27,011 bases of DNA from assembly GCF_006345805.1 (NCBI RefSeq), contig NW_021834050.1:1-27011 (forward strand). The letters run 5' to 3'. The position numbers and the translations under genes were made by a program. Of this stretch, positions 3,942-23,149 are shown piece by piece. Under the pieces are notes generated by a model. That model was not told where the DNA came from. It ran no database searches and was given only the letters and a program-made list of their open reading frames with translations. This stretch comes from Octopus sinensis. Lineage: Eukaryota. Positions within the stretch are counted from its first letter, which is position 1; each line of letters opens with the position of its first letter.

Positions 3942-4128
3942 GGACAAAGCGCTTGGCAGCATTTTGCTCGTATTTTCGTTGCGAGTTCAAATTCCGCCGA
4001 GGTCGAATTTGCCTTTCATCCTTTTGGGGTCGATAAATTAAGTACCAGTTACGCACTGGGGTCGATATAACTGCCTGTCCTTGTTTGTCCTCTCTGTGTT
4101 TAGCCCCTTGTGGGTAGTAAAGAAATAG
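3942..4128 (+). mobile_element. SINE A copy with a diverged head and a well-conserved body/tail
   Basis: GAGTTCAAATTCCGCCGAGGTCG...GGGGTCGATAAATTAAGTACCAG...GCCCCTTGTGGGTAGTAAAGAAATA. Confidence 0.88.
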
Positions 4129-6274: not shown

Positions 6275-6900
6275 AATAATTCTTTTTACTATAGGTACAA
6301 GGACTGAGAATTTGGGGAAATGGGCAAGCATCAACCCTGGTACTCAACTAGTACATATTTTTTTTATACCGAGGGGGTATAAAAGGAGTGGCTGTGTGGT
6401 AAGTAGCTTGCTAACCAACCACATGGTTCCGGGTTCAGTCCCACTGCGTGCCATCTTGGGCAAGTGTCTTCTACTATAGCCTCGGGCCGACCAAAGCCTT
6501 GTGAGTGAATTTGGTAGACGGAAACTGAAAGAAGCCCGTCGTATATATGTATATATATATATGTGTGTGTATGTGTGTGTGTTTGTGTGTCTGTGTTCGT
6601 CCTCCTAGCATTGCCTGACAACCGATGCTGGTGTGTTTATGTCCCCGTCACTTAGCAGTTCGGCAAAAGAGACCGATAAAATAAGTACTGGGCTTACAAA
6701 GAATAAGTCCCGGGGTCGAGTTGCTCGACTAAAGGTGGTGCTCCAGCATAGCTACAGTCAAATGACTGAAACAAGTAAAAGAGAAAAGAGAGAAAAAGAG
6801 GGGGATGAAAGATGAATTTGAACTCAAAACATAAAGACGGACGAAATCGCCGCTTAGTATTTTGTTCAGCGTGCTGACGATTCCGCCATCTTAACGCCTT
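6275..6900 (-). mobile_element. old SINE A-related copy (different tail) split by the SINE B insertion
   Basis: Tail/body at 6275-6383 (CCCTGGTACTCAACTAGTAC) and head at 6800-6900 (GAATTTGAACTCAAAACATAAAGACGGACGAAAT). GAGGGGG.AT.AAA occurs on both sides of the insert. Confidence 0.65.
6384..6799 (+). mobile_element. SINE B
   Basis: Full head, internal (TA)/(TG) repeat, conserved tail ...CAGTCAAATGACTGAAACAAGTAAAAGAG. Confidence 0.92.
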
Positions 6901-7345: not shown

Positions 7346-8275
7346 AGGAGGAGAGATTGCAACATATCCACATTGCACTGACTCCATAAGATTAAACACC
7401 ATATTTTAATGTGTGTAGAATGATCTTGGGTTAAACGTTGATACGACAGAGATTGATTCTGTGCGGTACATTGATTCGGTCATCTCGGTAGCTGCAAGCC
7501 AGAAGATTGCCCACTCTACATTCACACATTCATATGAGAAAACACTATCGAAAAATATTCTCGGTGTCATATAGGAAAAAAAAGCAAAGTCTATATATTT
7601 GCAATTTGAACTCAGAACATAAAGATGAACAAAACGCCGCCAAGCATTTTGCCCAGCTTTCTTACAGAAATGCTTTAAACATTAAAATGAATTCTCTGAA
7701 TATGAGACAGAGACTGAATTCATAAAATATATTAATGCATACAAAACCAACATAGAAGATTCATATGAAATTAATAACTATGAGAATCGTAAACAATACA
7801 GCCAGAAAATTTCATTTACATAGACCAATATCACAGTTTACTATCTTTTTGTCACTGAATAATTCTTGATAATCACATGGATGATAAGGAAATTTCGTAA
7901 TTTCTATTTGAAGAAATATTTTCGAATTCTTCTGAAGATTTTCCGATAATTTGCTGTCGTCATTCAGAAGTTACGCCGAAACGTCATATTATCTTGCAGA
8001 TATGCAGTTATATGTTTTCTAAGACATTTCAGTATCATCCAATTAGATTTTGATTCGACAAGCTTTTTTTTCTGGGTGACATTTTCATCCTCACTGACGA
8101 AGGATTTTACAAACTAGGAAAGTAAAAACAAAGGGAAATAAATTTACACGGTTATTTTCTGCCAAGGATGAATACTAAACAAGAAACAGCATTCGCTGTC
8201 CTTACACATTAAATTCTGACAAGGGTGAGAGCTAACTTTTATAAAGCCTCTCTTATGTTGCAACGGAAAGAAATA

Positions 8276-8840
8276 TTGGGTTGTCCGGAAAGTTCGTGCC
8301 GATTTATAGTAGCTTACCTTTCTACTTATTTTAGAATATGGTTGAGTCCATAGAATAGGATTTGACTACATCTCCGTTTAGAGCACAGTTTAAGCTATCT
8401 TTTCGTGGAAGAAGGTTTATGTTCCAATAACCTGTGTTAATTCTGTAACCCTTTAAAATGGAAGATAAGAAAGTTCATTTTCGGCACTTGATGCTTTGGG
8501 AACCAGACAAAAATTTGCTGCAGCTCGGCTGGGATGTGTTACCACACCCTCCATGTTTACCAGATATTGCTCCTTCGGATTTCCACTTATTCAGGTCTCT
8601 ACAGAATAGTCCGAATGGTAAAAATTTCAATTCTTTGGATGACGTTAAAAGATACCTTAATGAATTCTTTGCCATGAAACCACCTCAATTCTGGAAAGAG
8701 GGTATTTTCAAGTTAAAGGAAAGTTAGAGACGCACTGTGCAACAAAATAGTTCATATTTGGTTGTTTAAAAATGTAATGGCAAATATCTATTGACCTTTT
8801 TCTTTCCTTTAAAATCGGCACGAACTTTCCGACAACCCAA
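8276..8840 (+). mobile_element. internally deleted mariner transposon (mellifera-subfamily-like), TA target duplication
   Basis: TIRs TTGGGTTGTCCGGAAAGTTCGTGCCGATTT / AAATCGGCACGAACTTTCC-GACAACCCAA, with TA at 8274-8275 and 8841-8842. Confidence 0.95.
8458..8727 (+). pseudogene. mariner transposase remnant: N-terminal ~15 aa fused in frame to the C-terminal part
   Basis: MEDKKVHFRHLMLWE (mariner N-terminus) joined to LLQLGWDVLPHPPCLPDIAPSDFHLFRSLQN (the HPPYSPDLAPSD motif carrying the third catalytic D); premature stop near the end. Confidence 0.92.
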
Positions 8841-8867
8841 TAGTTAACTATATCACAATTAATTGTA

Positions 8868-9265
8868 AGGCGGTGGGCTTCCAGGTTCGGTAGCATGTCG
8901 GACAAAATGCTTAGCAGCATTTTCTCCGTTTTTAGGTTCAGGTCTAAATTCCGCCGAGGTTATCTTTGATTTTCCTCCTTTCTGGGTGGATAAAGTAAAT
9001 ACCAGTCAATGTAATTGATTTCCCTCCTCCCTCGAAATTTCTGCCTCTCTGCAAAAATTTGAAAGCAACGTTACTGATCCTTGCAAGGCAGCCATCTGAC
9101 AAATTTGTTTATCACAACGATATTTCATCCGTCTTCACGATCTGAGTTTAAAAGCCGGCGGCGTTGACTTTGTCTTCCATTCTTTCGGAATCGATAAAGC
9201 AAGGACCAGTTGAATATTGAGATCGATGTAATCATGGCGTTGTGCCAAATTTGGAAACCAATATT
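8868..9265 (+). mobile_element. two old SINE A-related copies (8868-9070 and 9120-9265)
   Basis: AGGCGGTGGGCTT...AAATTCCGCCGAGGTT...GATAAAGTAAATACCAG and TATTTCATCCGTC...GTTGACTTTGTCTTCCATTCTTTCGGAATCGATAAA; tails ..AAATTTG(G)AAA(G/C)CAA differ from the young tail. Confidence 0.7.
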
Positions 9266-9274
9266 ACTAGTAAT

Positions 9275-9678
9275 GGATGGGATGGAAGCACTCCATCGGT
9301 TACGACGACGAGGGTTCCGGTTGATCCGATCAACGGAACAGCCTGCTCGTGAAATTAACGTGTAAGTGGCTGAGCACTCCACAGACACGTGTACCCTTAA
9401 CGTAGTTCTCGGGGATATTCAGCGTGACACAGAGAGTGACACAGAGAGTGACGAGGCCGGCCCTTTGAAATACAGGTACAACAGAAACAGGAAGTAAGAG
9501 TGAGAGAAAGTTGTGGTGAAAGAGTACAGCAGGGATCACCACCATCCCTTGCCGGAGCCGCGTGGAGCTTTAGGTGTTTTCGCTCAATAAACACTCACAA
9601 CGCCCGGTCTGGGAATCGAAACCGCGATCCTACGATCGCAAGTCCGCTGCTCTAACCACTGGGCCTTTGCGCCTCCAC
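9275..9678 (-). mobile_element. tRNA-derived SINE 'family C', full length with TSD
   Basis: Reverse complement GTGGAGGCGCAAAGGCCCAGTGGTTAGAGC...GGTTTCGATTCCC; TSD TATTACTAGTAAT (9262-9274) / TATTACAAGTAAT (9679-9691); short CCAT-type tail. Confidence 0.93.
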
Positions 9679-10807
9679 TATTACAAGTAATACCGATGAT
9701 ACTTTGTTGTGAAGTACTGCCTTTCGTCGCACCTCTCACAACACCAGTGAAACTGCTTCTCATCAAGCTGAAAGTATAGAGCTGAGTAAAGAACTGTAGT
9801 TTAAATAAACTGTGCGCACTGATTAGTATAACCCATTCTGATATATATATAATTCTAGAGTCAAGACTATTGAAAAGGTTGCAAGACGCACCAAAATTTT
9901 TAGGAAAATACAAAGAAATTAGTGGAAATTTTACCGGTGAGTGTATTAAATTATAAGGCATAAAAAGAAAATGACTCTCCTCAGACACAACTGAATAATT
10001 TTAGTAATTTATACTAGTAAATACCTCTAGTCTGGTTCATGTAACCCAAAAGATTTCAAGTGCAGCCCGCATTTTAAAATGGAATTTGTTGATTTGCTCA
10101 AATTTGGTGGCAGAAATAATTCGAAATTGTCTCTGCGTGCCTGACTGCGCACAGTTTTAGTAAAAGTCAGCCGCTAGTGAACTTTCCTACGGAAGACTAG
10201 ATACGTAATGTTCTACTCCTAGAACTATTTAAGTGACACTTCTTTAGAGGAAGCGCCACCCTTGGAATAATTCCTTGTGTAAACAAAATTCTTAAGTTAC
10301 GTAGATCTATGTTTTTACTGAGATATAAATCGTATGGATTTTTTTACAGTTGGAAAGAGGTGATTATGTGTAAAAGGAAGCATTCATATTTATTTGGCAA
10401 ACATAAACAAGGCGTGTGTTTTGACAAAGAAAAATAAAATAAAATAAATCAATAAATAACGATAAATAATGTTTTTCGAACAAGAGTTAAAATCAATGAG
10501 AACCAGGAGCAACTACTGAGTTTAAGAAAAATTAAATCATAAATCAACATTTTTCATATGCAACCATCTTAGGTTAAAAAATAATACAAAAATAAACCAA
10601 TGTTTTTAAATAACAGAAAGAGTACATCATCACATGTGTTATGCTTCTCGAGTAAAAATAAAATCCAAAATTACAGTTAATATAAAAATATAAGCGTAAA
10701 ACTTTTCTGCTCAGGAAAAAATAATAAATAAAACAATTGCCGTAATTCTTCGCAAACCTCATCATATTTTACAAGAACAATAAAAAAATAACTAAACTAA
10801 CTCTTAA

Positions 10808-12134: not shown

Positions 12135-12328
12135 GATAATTGTTCTGAGTTACTAATGTTAGCCATTTTACGCATTGGAATTGTATAATAATAAAATTCA
12201 CCCAATAAGTTCATGGAATCGGCTATCTTCTAAAACACGGCTACCAACAGTAATATTTCACTGTGAGACCTTCGTTAATTCATCTTCAAATTTTTGCTGT
12301 GAAGAATGTATTTAATTTTAATCGCTGC
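12135..12328 (+). repeat. left copy of the 194-bp target duplication
   Basis: Identical to 13262-13455 except GTGAAGAAT versus GTGAGGAAT. Confidence 0.97.
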
Positions 12329-13261
12329 ATACGGAGTGTCGCAAGGCTCTCCTGCTATTCCGTCGCTCGGGCAACGCCTGCGGTGGGGGTTCCACCACAT
12401 TCTTCTATAGAGGGTTGGTAGAGGCGAAATGTGAAGACACCTTGGGGGAAACCCTGGGTCTCGACGATAATCAGCTGGCCAGTCTGTTCCGACGTACGTT
12501 CGAGCCGAAGACACTGGACAACTTCCAGAAGTCTCTGGCATGGCAATGCTACGAGGAGCTCTACCTGTTCGGGATAAACTCGCAAGGCACGGTGGCCAAG
12601 ACAGTCCGATGTGTCCAAGATGCGGACGGGATAGGGAAACCGTCCCGCACGCTATTGTTCATTGTTCGGTCGTGTCTGAGGTGTGGGTTTATGCCGAACA
12701 GCTGTTGTCAAGCACACGAAGAGTACAGCTGTCGACTGAGTGTATTAAAAAAATTGACCCACCAGATTTCCTCGCGAAAGAAGGTAAGAATTGTTTTCTC
12801 GTTGTGGTAGCAATTGCGAAAGAGGTGATATGGAAGACGAGAATGAAAGGTATACGGTCAGGCAAGTTCATATCCGGCCCTGGGTTGATGAATTACTTCA
12901 TCTACCACCTGAAAAGGAAGATAGGGCTGGAGAGAAAATGCCTGACTAAAAGAGTGTATGAAGAACGATGGAAGGATGTAGCACGGAAGTTGAGAATGGA
13001 TGACACCACATAAATGTAAATCAGAACGAAACCAAAAGTATCAGTGGTGAGGCGGGGCTCGTGGGGTCCGAGCTGAACCCGCCCCCACTCCACTTGTAAT
13101 GTCTTCCGGTCTGTTTTTTCATTCGATTTTATAATTTTTGCATTTTTGTGAATTTTTGAATTTTTAATCTCATCCTTTTTGTAACCCCATCCGAGAATCT
13201 GACCCCACATCAGGTTGTATTGTCCCCTCTTTGTTTGCCCCTTGTGGGTAATAATAAAACA
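12329..13261 (+). mobile_element. 5'-truncated Tx1/L1-clade non-LTR retrotransposon (ORF2 C-terminus plus 3' UTR)
   Basis: Abrupt GC-richer insert. The reading ...FQKSLAWQCY/RGALPVRDKL...CPRCGRDRETVPHAIVHC...AKEVIWKTR is a zf-RVT/CCHC region typical of L1/Tx1 ORF2. One frameshift near 12552, stop at 13013, T-rich UTR, end GCCCCTTGTGGGTAATAATAAAACA. Confidence 0.9.
12540..13013 (+). pseudogene. Tx1-type ORF2 C-terminal zinc-knuckle fragment
   Basis: C-x2-C-x8-H-x4-C (CPRCGRDRETVPHAIVHC) followed by W and IWKTR motifs; continues upstream in the 12415 frame. Confidence 0.88.
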
Positions 13262-13455
13262 GATAATTGTTCTGAGTTACTAATGTTAGCCATTTTACGC
13301 ATTGGAATTGTATAATAATAAAATTCACCCAATAAGTTCATGGAATCGGCTATCTTCTAAAACACGGCTACCAACAGTAATATTTCACTGTGAGACCTTC
13401 GTTAATTCATCTTCAAATTTTTGCTGTGAGGAATGTATTTAATTTTAATCGCTGC
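13262..13455 (+). repeat. right copy of the 194-bp target duplication
   Basis: 193/194 identical to 12135-12328; the hAT reading continues beyond it. Confidence 0.97.
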
Positions 13456-13550: not shown

Positions 13551-13930
13551 GTGGAGGCGCAATGACCCAGTGGTTAGGGCAGCGGACTCGCGGTCATAGG
13601 ATCGCGGTTTCGATTCCCAGACCGGGCGTTGTGAGTGTTTATTGAACGAAAACACCTAAAGCTCCACGACGCTCCGGCAGGGGATGGTGGTGATCCCTGC
13701 TGTACTCTTTCACCACAACTTTCTCTCACTCTTACTTCCTGTTTCTGTTGTATTTCAAAGGGCCAGCCTTGTCACTCTCTGTGTCACGCTGTATAGCCCC
13801 GAGAACTACGTTAAAGGTACACGTGTCTGTGGAGTGCTCAGCCACTTACACGTTAATTTCACGAGCAGGCTGTTCCGTTGATTCGGATCAACCGGAACCC
13901 TCGTCGTCGTAACCGACGGAGTGCTTCCCA
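13551..13930 (+). mobile_element. SINE C, full length with TSD
   Basis: GTGGAGGCGCAATGACCCAGTGGTTAGGGC head; TSD GTATAAATAC at 13541-13550 and 13931-13940. Confidence 0.94.
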
Positions 13931-14058
13931 GTATAAATACAGTTCTCGAGACAATGCTTCTCTTAACCGAAATATTATGATAGGTTTTTCAAAATGTTCC
14001 TCCTGAATTTCGAAAATCGGAGAGATGCCTTGAATCAAAATATTTCAATTATAGGTAT

Positions 14059-14607
14059 AGACACAGGCGTGGCCGTGTAGTAAGAAGCTTGCCTCCCATC
14101 ATCATGTTTGCAGGTTCAGTCCCACTGCGTGGCAACTTGGGCAGTTGTCATGAGTGGATTTTCTAGACAAGCTGAAAGAAACCCATCGCATCTTTATGTG
14201 TGTGTGTGTGTGTGTGTGTTGTTGTTGTTAAGCAACAAGACGGGTAAGGGTGATTAGATGATGGTCTAGGGCTTAGGGGCGGGAGACCCCAGACCCTGGA
14301 AAAAACACCTTGGTCGTCTTGTTGTTGTCGAGGGCTCTTCGTTGACGCCTGATACCACTGGGAGGTGGTCCTCGAAGTCGCTAGAAATGGATATCTCGAG
14401 GTCCAAATTCTTGAAAGGCTGTGTGTGTCCGCTTGACAACCGATGTTTTTGTGTTTACGTCCCCGAAACTTAGAAGTACACCAAAAAACCGATGAATGAA
14501 TACTAGGTTTACAAAGAATAAGTCCCAGGGTCGATTTGTCGGACTAAAAGCAGTGTTCCAGCATGGCCGCTGTCAAATGACTGAAACAAGTAAAAGAATA
14601 AAAGAAT
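14059..14607 (+). mobile_element. diverged SINE B carrying a ~200-bp insertion in its (TG)n
   Basis: Head at 14059-14196, (TG)n, insert at 14218-14419, then the tail through GTCAAATGACTGAAACAAGTAAAAGAATAAAAG. Confidence 0.88.
14218..14419 (-). mobile_element. probable retroelement 3' end with an (AAC)n tail, inserted in (CA)n
   Basis: GC-rich insert bounded by TG repeats on both sides; the minus strand ends ...CGTCTTGTTGCTTAACAACAACAAC; internal stems present. Confidence 0.55.
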
Positions 14608-14756
14608 ATGGGTTTCATTCTTTCAATGGCAACGTAATCATAACAAATTAAGCAGATAGGTGTAAGTTCATTATGTTTGTAATTAAAAGTAAGTCCATAT
14701 TGCAAATTTGATTCGTTACATTTCCTGTATTTGGTGACATTTTGGTATCAATTTGT

Positions 14757-15337
14757 GTTGCGCGCTGGGCGAAATGCCTTGCAGTATTTCGTCTGCCGCT
14801 TCGTTCTGAGTGCAAATTCCGTCGAGGTCGACTTTGCTTTTCACCTTTCGGGATCGAAAGTACCAGTTACGCACTGGCGTCGATATAATCGACCAACTCA
14901 GTTTGTCTGTCCTTGTTTGTGCTCTCTGTGTTTAGCCCCTTGTGGGTAGCAAAGAAATAAGTATTTCGTCTGCCGTTACGTTCTGAGTTTAAATTCCGCC
15001 GACGTCGACTTTGCTTTTCTTCCTTTCGGGGTCGATGAATTAAGTACCAGTTACGCACTGGGGTCGATATAATCGACTTAATTCGTTTGTCTGTCCTTGT
15101 TTGTCCCCTCTGTGTGTAGCCCCTTGCGGGCAGTAAAGAAATAGAAACTTTAGCACGCCGGGCGAAATGCTTTTAGGTATTTCATCTGTCTTTGCGTTCA
15201 AATTCCGCCGAGGTCGGCTTTCCCTTTCAGCTTCTTCGTGTCGATAAATTAAGTATCAGTTGCGTACTGGATTCGATCTCATCAACTGGTCCCTTCCCAT
15301 AAAATTTCGGGCCTTGTCCCTAGTGTAGAAAAGAATA
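14757..15337 (+). mobile_element. SINE A tandem array: two units with the Tx1-like tail followed by an older-type unit with a different tail
   Basis: Junctions GAAATA|AGTATTTCGTC (~14960) and GAAATA|GAAACTTTAGCACG (~15143); the last unit ends ...AAATTTCGGGCCTTGTCCCTAGTGTAGAAAAG. Confidence 0.9.
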
Positions 15338-17583: not shown

Positions 17584-17834
17584 GTTTGCAGCTTAGAACT
17601 TTAAGGTTGAAATATACTTTGCGTTATATCATTCTCATCTTTCGGAATGCGTTGAGCCAAGAGTTGGTCTCAATGTCATCCTGCGACCTCCGATTCACTT
17701 CATCGCTCAAAATTCAGTTCCCAAAATATTGTGCTTGATCGATTATTTGAGAAATGGGAAAATCTTTCACTGATCGTACTATAAATTTAGAAATTGCAGA
17801 ATTTTTATTTCCTCTCAGCTGCTATAAATATATA

Positions 17835-18391
17835 TCTCTTTATTGCCCACAAGGGGCTAAACATGGAGGGAACAAACAAGGACAGACAAAGGGATTAAGT
17901 CGATTACATCGACCCCAGTGCATAACTGGTACTAAACTTATCGACCCTGAAAGGATGAAAGGCAAAGTCGAAATACCTATTTCTTTATTACCCACAAGAG
18001 GCTAAACACAGAGAGGACAAACAAGGGCAGACAAAGGGATTAAGTCGATTACATCGACCTCAGTGCGTAACTGGTACTTAATTTATCGACCCCGAAAGGA
18101 TGAAGGTAAAGCCGACCTCGGCGGAATTTGAACTCAGAACGTAACGGCAGACGAAATAACTATTTCTTTACTACCCACAAGGGGCTAAACACAGAGAGGA
18201 CAAACAAGGACAGACACACGGATTAAGTCCATTATATCGACCCCAGTGCGTAATTGGTACTTAATTTATCGACCATGAAAGGATGAGAGGCAAAGTCGAC
18301 CTCGGCGGAATTTGAACTCAGAGCGTAACGGCAGACGAAATACCGCTAAGCATCTCGCCCGGCGTGCTTACGATTCTGGCAGCTGACCGCC
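17835..18391 (-). mobile_element. SINE A tandem array of three units (the last internally deleted)
   Basis: Single head at 18391; junctions at ~18160 and ~17977; period 183 bp; the third unit lacks the B-box segment via a deletion between TCG microhomologies. Confidence 0.92.
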
Positions 18392-18917: not shown

Positions 18918-19335
18918 TCAGAGATCATGAAGAAAAAAATGCTTTCTAATTGATGTATCAATACCAGCAGATGACAACGTGTCTCTAAAAGAAATGGAGA
19001 AACTTTCAAAATACAAAGAACTGGAAATAAAGGTAACCCGAATGTGGAGTCTAAAAACAGAAACAATTCCTATCATAGTAGGTGCATTAGGCATGATAAA
19101 AAAATATTCAGACAAATACATAACAAAAACACCAGGACTTACAAACACATATAACATACAGAAAATTGCACTACTGGGCACTGCACACATACTACGCAAA
19201 ACATTTTCAATACAGTAACCATCAGAGCATCACAACAAAACACAGCACATACCCAAGGCACACAGAGGCTGCGCTCGGTAGTGAAGTGAAAGCACGCTAT
19301 AAAAATAAAACTACTGAATAATGATAATAATAATT
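18918..19335 (+). mobile_element. 3' end of an R4/Dong-clade (restriction-like endonuclease) non-LTR retrotransposon
   Basis: RDHEEKKCFLIDVSIPADDNVSLKEMEKLSKY...IPIIVGALG...IQKIALLGTAHILRK is the RLE C-terminus; short UTR ending in AATAATGATAATAATAAT, consistent with the (TAA)n preference of Dong. Confidence 0.88.
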
Positions 19336-20868: not shown

Positions 20869-21246
20869 GTGGCGGTGCAATGACCCAGTGCTTAGGGCAG
20901 TGGACACGTGGTCATAGGATCGCGGTTTTGACTTCCAGACCGGGCATTGTCAGTGTTTGTTAAGCGAAAACCCTTAAAGCTCCACGCGGCTCCAGCAGGG
21001 GATAGTGGCGAACCCTGTTGTATTCTTTCACCACAACTTCCTCTCAATCTTTCTTCCAGCTTCTCTTGTACCTGTATTTCAAAGGGCCGGACTTGTCATA
21101 CTCTGTGCCACGCTGAACCTCCCCGAGAACTACGTTAAGGATACAAGTGTCTGTGGAGTGCTCAGCCACTTGCAAGTTTATTTCACGAGCAGTCTGTTGA
21201 TCGGATCAACTAGAACTCTCTTCGTCGTAACCGATAGAGTACCACG
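20869..21246 (+). mobile_element. SINE C, diverged full-length copy
   Basis: Collinear with 13551-13930 throughout. Confidence 0.9.
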
Positions 21247-22454: not shown

Positions 22455-22877
22455 CTCTTTACTCTTTTACTCTTTTACTTGTTTCAGTCATTTGACTGCG
22501 GCCATGCTGGAGCACCGCCTTTAGTCGAGCAAATCGACCCCGGGACTTATTCTTTGTAAGCCCAGTACTTATTCTATCGGTCTCTTTTGCCGAACCGCTA
22601 ATTGACGGGGACGTACACACACCAGCATCGGTTGTCAAGCAATGCTAGGGGGACAAACACACACACACAAACACACACACATACACATATATACACATAT
22701 ATATAAATATATACGACAGGCTTCTTTCAGTTTCCGTCTACCAAATCCACTCACAAGACATTGGTCGGCCCGGGGCTATAGCAGAAAACACTTGCCCAAG
22801 ATGCCACGCAGTGGAACTGAACCCAGAACCATGTGGTTGGTTAGCAAGCTACTTACCACACAGCCACTCCTGCGCCT
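22455..22877 (-). mobile_element. SINE B, well-conserved full-length copy
   Basis: Head AGGCGCAGGAGTGGCTGTGTGG through the tail (GTAAAAGA)n. Confidence 0.93.
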
Positions 22878-23149
22878 ATTGTTAAAAGACACTGAGGGAG
22901 GTGAAATTCGTGCATAATATTCAGGAAATTAATATGTCGATAACGAATCAATAACATGGCAATACTAACCGTTGAAAAATCGTATCTAACAAGTACTTGA
23001 ATGTTGATCACTTAACTGATGCAGATGCAGAGACAAAAAAACCACACGGCGTTCACATATTAGTGACGTATAAATATTTGATTTTTATCTGCATGGAATC
23101 TCATTTTACGTGTATGCATATAGGTAATGCATGTGCATATGCTATGCAA

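Follow-up and report, generated by a model that had tools for sequence, protein, structure and literature searches.

A high-copy SINE of Octopus sinensis shares a hairpin-bearing, poly(A)-free 3′ tail with Tx1-clade LINEs

Introduction

Mammalian L1 takes any poly(A) RNA, and most other long interspersed elements (LINEs) require their own 3′ tail on the RNA that they copy. Here we describe a 3′ tail common to a LINE of the Tx1 clade and to SINE A, a short interspersed element (SINE), both present in a 27,011-nucleotide stretch of Octopus sinensis DNA (assembly GCF_006345805.1, contig NW_021834050.1, positions 1 to 27,011, forward strand) that we call the window throughout. An initial annotation, made from the letters of this stretch, had proposed SINE A as the stringent partner of the Tx1 LINE in the window. 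We consider it likely that the tail of SINE A was acquired from a Tx1 LINE and that SINE A is copied in trans by the protein product of Tx1 open reading frame 2 (ORF2p), which would recognize the hairpin in the tail and not poly(A). The evidence comprises the tail itself, its presence on all LINE copies examined, a Tx1-type reverse transcriptase (RT), covariation in the stem of the hairpin, fixed 3′ ends and target-site duplications of 11 to 18 bp. That the SINE tail originated in Tx1 is well supported, and mobilization by Tx1 is likely; the case for the window's own LINE family as the partner is weaker.

Results

SINE A and the LINE end in the same tail

The end of the LINE lies at positions 13215-13261 on the plus strand, just where it had first been placed, and comprises a pyrimidine tract, a hairpin and AATAAA (13253-13258), without poly(A). 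The 41 matching columns of 48 originally counted between this end and a SINE A end were the same on recount. The best natural SINE A match is at 116-63 on the minus strand (46 of 55 positions aligned, E = 7e-10), in the copy annotated at 70-303 (−), which is followed by a further unit that extends past the start of the window. For six more SINE A ends of the window, the match to the LINE end has E values of 7e-10 to 2e-5. The similarity is confined to the tail: it begins at 13215, ends at the element end and excludes the upstream 3′ untranslated region (UTR). What the two elements have in common is a hairpin-bearing segment of ~60 bases.

The inner hairpin that had been noted in both, GCCC-CTTGT-GGGT at 13237-13249 (+), is part of the fold predicted for the LINE tail, and likewise for the two SINE tails that were folded, and is further indicated by covariation across families; a GGGC variant of the stem is known from one SINE A subfamily. 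The statement that neither element has poly(A) also held up, none of 60 LINE copies and none of 76 SINE copies having eight or more A in a row at the end. One distant Tx1 family has a terminal run of ten A.

The LINE is a member of the Tx1 clade

The copy in the window (12329-13261, +) is 5′-truncated and consists of the last 933 nt of a ~5.3-kb element, namely the end of ORF2 with a zf-RVT domain (E = 2.7e-9) followed by the 3′ UTR. It is frameshifted in ORF2 and has its stop codon at 13011-13013. Its identity to copies in the genome is 87-100%, and most of those copies reach further 5′. Full-length copies of the family (~5.3 kb) carry two ORFs. A natural ORF2 of 1133 amino acids matches the Pfam domains Exo_endo_phos (5e-16), RVT_1 (5e-31) and zf-RVT (2e-9), that is, an N-terminal apurinic-type endonuclease, an RT and a C-terminal CCHC zinc finger, the layout that the Tx1 clade requires; intact frames of 1132-1135 amino acids exist in the genome. 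In ORF1 we found one CCHC knuckle as a weak match (E = 0.053), and a domain search of ORF1 matched neither RRM nor Transposase_22; a Tx1 ORF1 is expected to combine an RRM with a zinc knuckle and to lack Transposase_22.

Among structures in the PDB, ORF2 matched L1 ORF2p with an E value of 2e-67, compared with 2e-25 for R2. In an RT tree of 48 rows (41 chosen proteins and 7 genomic frames, with some outgroups on long branches), the family fell inside a clade of 36 rows with support of 98/96, together with two entries named "Transposon TX1 uncharacterized 149 kDa protein"; these names are automatic, and the tree is one without curated Repbase Tx1 references and without human L1 itself. Among the proteins outside this clade are one from Chara and a frog L1-like one (P0246) that reaches 472 bits in comparison with human L1. 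The RT thus groups with Tx1-named proteins, and the outcome named beforehand as damaging to the proposal, an RT outside L1/Tx1, did not arise. The nearest named protein relative is from Argonauta hians (64%). A search for ORF2 homologues with cluster look-up returned almost no named proteins, and the ESM Atlas generic names alone; a comparison of the endonuclease loop with PDB chimeras did not discriminate, and a PDB search with P0241 was dominated by the kinase part of that protein.

Copies of the LINE are nested in other Tx1 copies and in shared flanks, which is a Tx1-like targeting trait. A preference for repeats or microsatellites as targets is described for many, not all, Tx1 members (PMC4494074; here and below, papers are cited for parts of their text). 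Judged by its sequence, the window LINE belongs to the Tx1 clade, an assignment based on the RT grouping; the nesting in repeats and a microsatellite-associated sister family are also Tx1 traits.

The tail belongs to the LINE and recurs across Tx1 families

A query made of the 3′ UTR without the tail gave 41 matches from the 40 of 448 candidates that were scored and returned 30 loci, and in all 30 (the window copy itself and some array neighbors included) the tail stood directly downstream. Absence of the tail from most LINE copies, which the initial annotation had named as evidence to the contrary, was thus not what we found, and a chance SINE insertion at this LINE end is ruled out. A protein search for ORF2 loci, in which 150 of 23,139 candidates were scored, together with extended loci, placed an AATAAA-type tail at most 520 nt from the C-terminal end of ORF2 in 127 of 133 ends (a redundant set, with one false upstream motif among the 127); among the six ends without a called tail, L041 and L044 do show tails. 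The tail is part of the LINE.

Tx1 families at 42-69% ORF2 identity end in the same design: a pyrimidine tract, TCT-N-TGT, a hairpin of 3-5 bp and AATAAAGAAA. Counting closer families too, the design spans 42-100% protein identity. When seven sister-family copies were compared with the window family, the tail was 62-75% identical and the upstream UTR 49-60%, with shuffles at ~45%. The 3′ ends are fixed a few bases past AATAAA or AGTAAA, copies stopping 2-7 nt after AATAAA. The tailed SINE A subfamily is much younger than this design, so the tail appears to have passed from LINE to SINE. Separately, a short element in L112 near position 2562 (+) has a similar pyrimidine tract, a hairpin and AATAAAGAAA, followed by (TATC)n, and is possibly a second Tx1 client.

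The inner stem covaries

When 15 LINE and 5 SINE tails were aligned without fitting, AATAAA was the best-conserved part. Three of the four pairs of the inner stem change on both sides (C-G to U-A, A-U or G-C); such two-sided changes occupy 15 cells, compared with 6.9 in shuffles, and the stem is paired in 87% of cells, compared with 46-61% when it is slid. RNAalifold, unprompted, returned a covarying 3-bp stem from the alignment, and A-to-G and T-to-C variants within the SINE preserve stem pairs (U-G, G-C).

Three points reduce the force of this result. The structure tested was drawn from the same sequences, and the shuffles ignore relatedness; the folding of individual tails does not surpass that of shuffles (z of −1.3 to +0.2 in 5 of 5 tails folded); and the conservation of AATAAA could reflect a signal for polyadenylation by RNA polymerase II (Pol II). 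The stringent recognition that had been proposed would rest on conservation and covariation, with a hairpin no stabler than shuffles.

SINE A copies are abundant and carry target-site duplications

SINE A is laid out as a head with A- and B-box-like motifs, a central core to about position 168 and a Tx1-type tail of ~63 nt. The full-length copy at 18161-18391 (−), ~231 nt long with head, core and Tx1-type tail, is the first unit of a three-unit array (17826-18391), whose second and third units (17826-18160, −) are shortened, each with its own Tx1-type tail (Tandem Repeats Finder periods of 183 and 145). Other tailed copies in the window lie at 3942-4128 (+), with a tail match to the LINE end, and at 14760-15145 (+), where two units stand in tandem with a period of 184. 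The tandems at 14760-15145, 17826-18391 and 1-303 join at two head sites, around positions 15 and 48; several SINE A arrays have a single target duplication around them, and 7 of 44 units are multimeric.

We sampled 60 segments of 10 kb at round coordinates on 28 large contigs (600 kb). Of the 119 SINE A matches in this sample, 38 had a Tx1-type tail; older tails accounted for 44 more, 35 had no recognized tail and 2 were tail only. Extrapolated from the 600 kb to the 2.72-Gb genome, this amounts to ~170,000 tailed copies (127,000 by strict motif), or ~1.1-1.5% of the genome. Target-site duplications of 11-18 bp were found in 15 of 44 units, compared with 1 of 434 controls. They were called at 13 of 41 LINE ends, twelve of them 11-21 bp long, and in 9 of 29 copies of a Tx1 sister family (11-19 bp). 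Because SINE C shows duplications of 10-12 bp in 4 of 21 copies, such duplications are not unique to SINE A; a control with SINE B (1 of 48) is unreliable, its repeated tail not having been handled. SINE A is short, non-coding, interspersed, of high copy number and flanked by target duplications, as a SINE should be.

A run of four T occurs in 3 of 76 SINE A tails and in 21 of 76 whole copies, which is compatible with transcription by RNA polymerase III (Pol III). ARAGORN and Rfam returned no match for a tRNA head. When the head was compared with 15 genomic tRNAs of six isotypes, the score of one copy (43.8) exceeded those of all 200 shuffles (maximum 42.4), and for a second copy 40 of 200 shuffles scored as high. 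With A- and B-box-like motifs visible in the alignment, the sequences weakly suggest a tRNA origin of the head. The core may resemble the Meta domain, which in MetaSINEs is a 66-bp segment placed directly after a tRNA-derived head. The Meta motif had no match in the searchable supplements of PMC4824008 and PMC4758252 other than file 1.

Older SINE A copies carry other tails

That older SINE A-like copies have another tail, as first noted, proved real: the 44 older-tail matches among the 119 are of GGC-CTTGT-GCC type. By their sequence, two such copies lie in the window, one at 15146-15335 (+) with a GGGCCTTGTCCC hairpin followed by TAGAAAAG, and a decayed one at 9121-9270 (+) with a tail of TTGTGCC...GAAACC type. 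The median pairwise core identity of tailed copies (0.90, n = 34) is higher than that of the older types (0.785, n = 14, and 0.796, n = 15), which makes the tailed copies the younger ones.

Microsatellites of ATT/ATC type surround older-tail copies (7 of 19 on either side, with a background of 3%), and tailed copies are near such repeats in 2 of 26 and 0 of 26 cases on the two sides. Because the microsatellite context differs between the two types, the insertion signature changed along with the tail. Of the switch of mobilizing LINE that had been proposed, the exchange of tails and the changed insertion context are thus borne out, and the part that stays without a counterpart is a LINE with the older tails: of 84 matches in the loci searched, 7 were without a SINE core upstream and none was a LINE. 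CTTGT is also the loop of the hairpin in the older tails, and both this loop and an (ATT)n context are found in one older Tx1 family. In this family (L221-L240, 80-86% identical to the seed copy; the ORF2 linkage of L201-L240 rests on their seed loci), ATT/ATC/ACT repeats, read by eye, follow in 18 of 20 loci, much as in the microsatellite-targeting Kibi and Koshi. Since the older tails share the loop and the microsatellite context with an older Tx1 family, the earlier partner may be another Tx1, and SINE A may have switched between Tx1 lineages.

Candidate Tx1 donors of the tail, and rival explanations

Of the alternatives to the reading given above, the one that survives best, although we think it doubtful, is implied by the initial annotation: that SINE A took its tail directly from the LINE family seen in the window and has this family as its partner today. 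The two have an identical hairpin (GCCC-CTTGT-GGGT), and the window family has the top local score to the SINE tail (53, compared with 20-49, L274 and L277 not being scored). Their last bases differ, however: the window family ends in AATAATAAAAC and SINE A in AAAGAAATA, as sister families do, and the outer helix kept by SINE A is broken in the window family by its altered last bases. Over the last 66 nt the window family is no closer to SINE A (69.7%) than the sister families are (66.7-72.7%), and its copies are young, whereas young SINE copies are almost absent. Elsewhere in the Tx1 group, copy L277 has the same last ~26 bases as SINE A, L274 also matches the terminal part, and L164-type copies match the upstream ~28 bases of the tail.

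Several results also count against our main reading. Three pattern searches for the whole SINE A tail in one LINE family gave 16 matches, none of them whole (12 SINE variants and four LINE-type ends, L164, L274, L277 and L278). The flanks of SINE A read AGAA in 9, GGTA in 9, TATA in 8 and GATA in 3 of 44 cases, so that motif agreement with the LINE is loose; those of the window family read GAT in 9 of 36, the SINE-type motif fitting 8 of 36 compared with a background of 8.6%, and the L164-type family prefers pyrimidine-rich sites. Ages differ as well. SINE A has a pairwise median identity of 0.90, with values of at least 0.97 in 3 of 2850 pairs, while, in LINE samples biased to the best matches, nearest neighbors of the LINE are 0.95-1.0 identical and other Tx1 families span 80-100%. 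Because the last bases of the SINE fit sister families better and the SINE burst looks older, the window family is not a proven donor; its sequences suggest instead a relative with a derived end that looks younger than the burst. SINE A was probably mobilized by an ancestral or sister lineage of the window family that was active during the SINE burst.

A second alternative, which we regard as unlikely, keeps both the Tx1 tail and Tx1 mobilization and supposes that recognition is relaxed: the conserved region would be a signal for 3′-end formation, made up of AATAAA and a U-rich tract upstream of it, and priming would come from short base-pairing between the RNA end and the target and not from the hairpin. 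That AATAAA is the most conserved part and the hairpin no stabler than shuffles fits this explanation, as do SINE flanks that differ by subfamily (AGAA in 9 of 20 for the GGGC type, GGTA in 29 of 56 for the GGGT types), since such flanks are expected if RNA ends anneal to targets. Canonical cleavage takes place 10-30 nt downstream of AATAAA, however, and the copies end 2-7 nt past it, too near for such cleavage and without poly(A). Moreover, the inner stem covaries, and a Pol III-type SINE keeps the stem with no need of a Pol II signal.

Less probable again is that the Tx1 tail is a mere passenger and that SINE A is mobilized by RTE, CR1/L2 or Dong/R4 elements. Such a passenger would be in keeping with the exact donor not having been found and with the imperfect match of target motif and age to the window family, but SINE A ends where Tx1 ends and has no microsatellite tail (a 3′ triplet run in 0 of 26), the lengths of its duplications match those of Tx1, and it is the tailed subfamily that is young and has expanded. 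Transfer from SINE to LINE, with a SINE fragment sitting at or captured into the LINE end, is highly improbable: SINE tails are far commoner (28 strict motifs in the 600 kb, compared with 0 for the LINE) and the hairpin may have been exchanged late between SINE and window family, but 30 of 30 LINE copies have the tail, and the homologous tails at 42-69% ORF2 identity are much older than the 90%-identical SINE subfamily.

Other features of the LINE copies and of the window

The LINE in the window is flanked by a direct duplication of 194 bp, at 12135-12328 (+) and, adjoining the LINE 3′ end, at 13262-13455 (+). The two copies are 99.5% identical and were the only full matches in a genome search, the DNA being otherwise single-copy. 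As a target-site duplication it is unusually long, ~10 times longer than the 11-21 bp duplications at twelve other LINE copies.

Full-length Tx1 copies occur in nested head-to-tail arrays, often of mixed families (L031, L032, L036, L039, L046 and L083-L095), in which one copy sits within the 5′ UTR or ORF1 of the next or re-uses an earlier junction. A downstream flank of ~190 nt that ends in a hairpin and CTAGT is common to L020, L023, L065, L067, L070, L074, L075 and L077. This end looks Helitron-like, and the flank may be a site that the LINE prefers as target or else a carrier by which a LINE insertion was amplified. At L048 (G000:C18:46160300-46170200), a window-family LINE copy lies within a SINE A copy in opposite orientation. 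RNA contigs of four runs cover the LINE and its tail; they cannot show ends or poly(A) and were not used as evidence.

Two further SINE families are present in the window. One, at 13554-13931 (+), 9284-9682 (−) and 20869-21240 (+), has a tRNA-Lys-like head (score 58) and duplications of 10-12 bp; the other, at 6384-6790 (+), 1773-2207 (−), 14057-14608 (+) and 22460-22879 (−), carries a microsatellite in its interior and has a repeated end of AAAAGAG/T type. By eye, 18918-19330 (+) looks like a Dong/R4-type LINE 3′ fragment and 8271-8845 like a short mariner-like element; the ends of the latter show an inverted match to each other. The repeat make-up of the genome resembles that described for octopuses (PMC13282606, PMC8967140).

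Discussion

As SINE A ends in a tail of the Tx1 group, it is likely copied by a Tx1 enzyme through tail-specific recognition. A plausible course of events would begin with a template switch by which a Tx1 3′ end was joined to the head and core of an older SINE. The resulting element, whose tail has no T4 terminator, would be transcribed by Pol III; Tx1 ORF2p would then bind the tail and nick an AT-rich target, and target-primed reverse transcription would start at a set spacing from the hairpin, leaving RNA downstream uncopied.

SINE A is of a known kind, the stringent SINE-LINE pair, with an unusual partner clade. It has two features of such pairs, a homologous 3′ tail ending at the LINE end and a stem-loop with compensatory changes. 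Described examples include eel UnaSINE with UnaL2, zebrafish ZfL2 and the V, CORE and Meta SINEs of bivalves with CR1, CR1-Zenon, L2 and Nimb (PMC3747384, PMC4824008, PMC11481361), and with these SINE A has in common a short shared tail, a stem-loop with compensatory changes and a tail swap on a conserved head and core. The shared tails of bivalves are 35-61 bp long at 72-95% identity (PMC11481361). Unlike the pairs in Table 1 of Ohshima's survey and in the bivalve survey (PMC3747384, PMC11481361), SINE A has a Tx1-clade partner and no terminal microsatellite. Three of the 58 pairs in Ohshima's survey have L1-clade tails (maize and Chlamydomonas), and none is named as Tx1 in the text cited (PMC3747384). 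These three, ZmSINE2 and ZmSINE3 with LINE1-1_ZM and SINEX-3_CR with L1-1_CR, likewise share tails within the L1 group (PMC3472496, PMC3747384); the LINE 3′ end is conserved over ~45-80 nt with a covarying hairpin, which was read as a sign of stringent recognition (PMC3472496, PMC3747384). The maize and Chlamydomonas L1 lineages end in poly(A) or poly(T), whereas the octopus pair involves an animal Tx1 without poly(A).

The crocodilian SINEU, attributed to Tx1-Mar (PMC4494074), resembles SINE A in being a Tx1-attributed SINE with tandem insertions and in the targeting of repeats and microsatellites by its Tx1. SINEU was assigned by shared target, whereas SINE A is linked by a shared structured tail (PMC4494074); Kojima (2015), in the text cited, found no non-LTR (non-long terminal repeat) family with the 3′ end of SINEU-1 (PMC4494074). 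The heads of SINEU come from the small nuclear RNAs U1 and U2 (PMC4494074), and that of SINE A looks Pol III-type. The MetaSINE superfamily, which includes cuttlefish SepiaSINE2, has like SINE A a head, a conserved core and an exchangeable tail (PMC4824008), and its partner LINEs were stated there to be unknown at the time of writing. Partners reported for mollusc SINEs are CR1, CR1-Zenon, L2 and Nimb (PMC4824008, PMC4758252, PMC11481361). Within the open literature covered, which also took in parts of PMC9004415, PMC4176376, PMC3531059, PMC7245038, PMC5381603 and PMC5203782 and whose scope lay outside subscription journals, Repbase Reports and Dfam, we found no description of a tail-sharing Tx1-SINE pair or of this octopus-type pair, and hence no tail-sharing precedent.

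If Tx1 mobilization is correct, it would identify what drove one of this genome's large SINE expansions. The model in which the L1 group was stringent first and relaxed later is an open one that has drawn on plants and algae (PMC3472496). A direct test of it is offered by an animal Tx1 that combines a covarying tail and a natural intact ORF2 with the absence of poly(A) and with a natural SINE client, and the Tx1 ORF2 copies allow comparison with solved structures of L1 ORF2p. More tentatively, and at somewhat less than even chances in our view, this animal Tx1 radiation as a whole may recognize its RNA through a structured 3′ handle that does not depend on poly(A); SINE A would then be the first tail-sharing Tx1-SINE pair and would directly support stringent recognition as the ancestral state in the L1 group, the handle having been hijacked by a SINE of more than 100,000 copies, perhaps repeatedly, by moves between Tx1 lineages with different targets.
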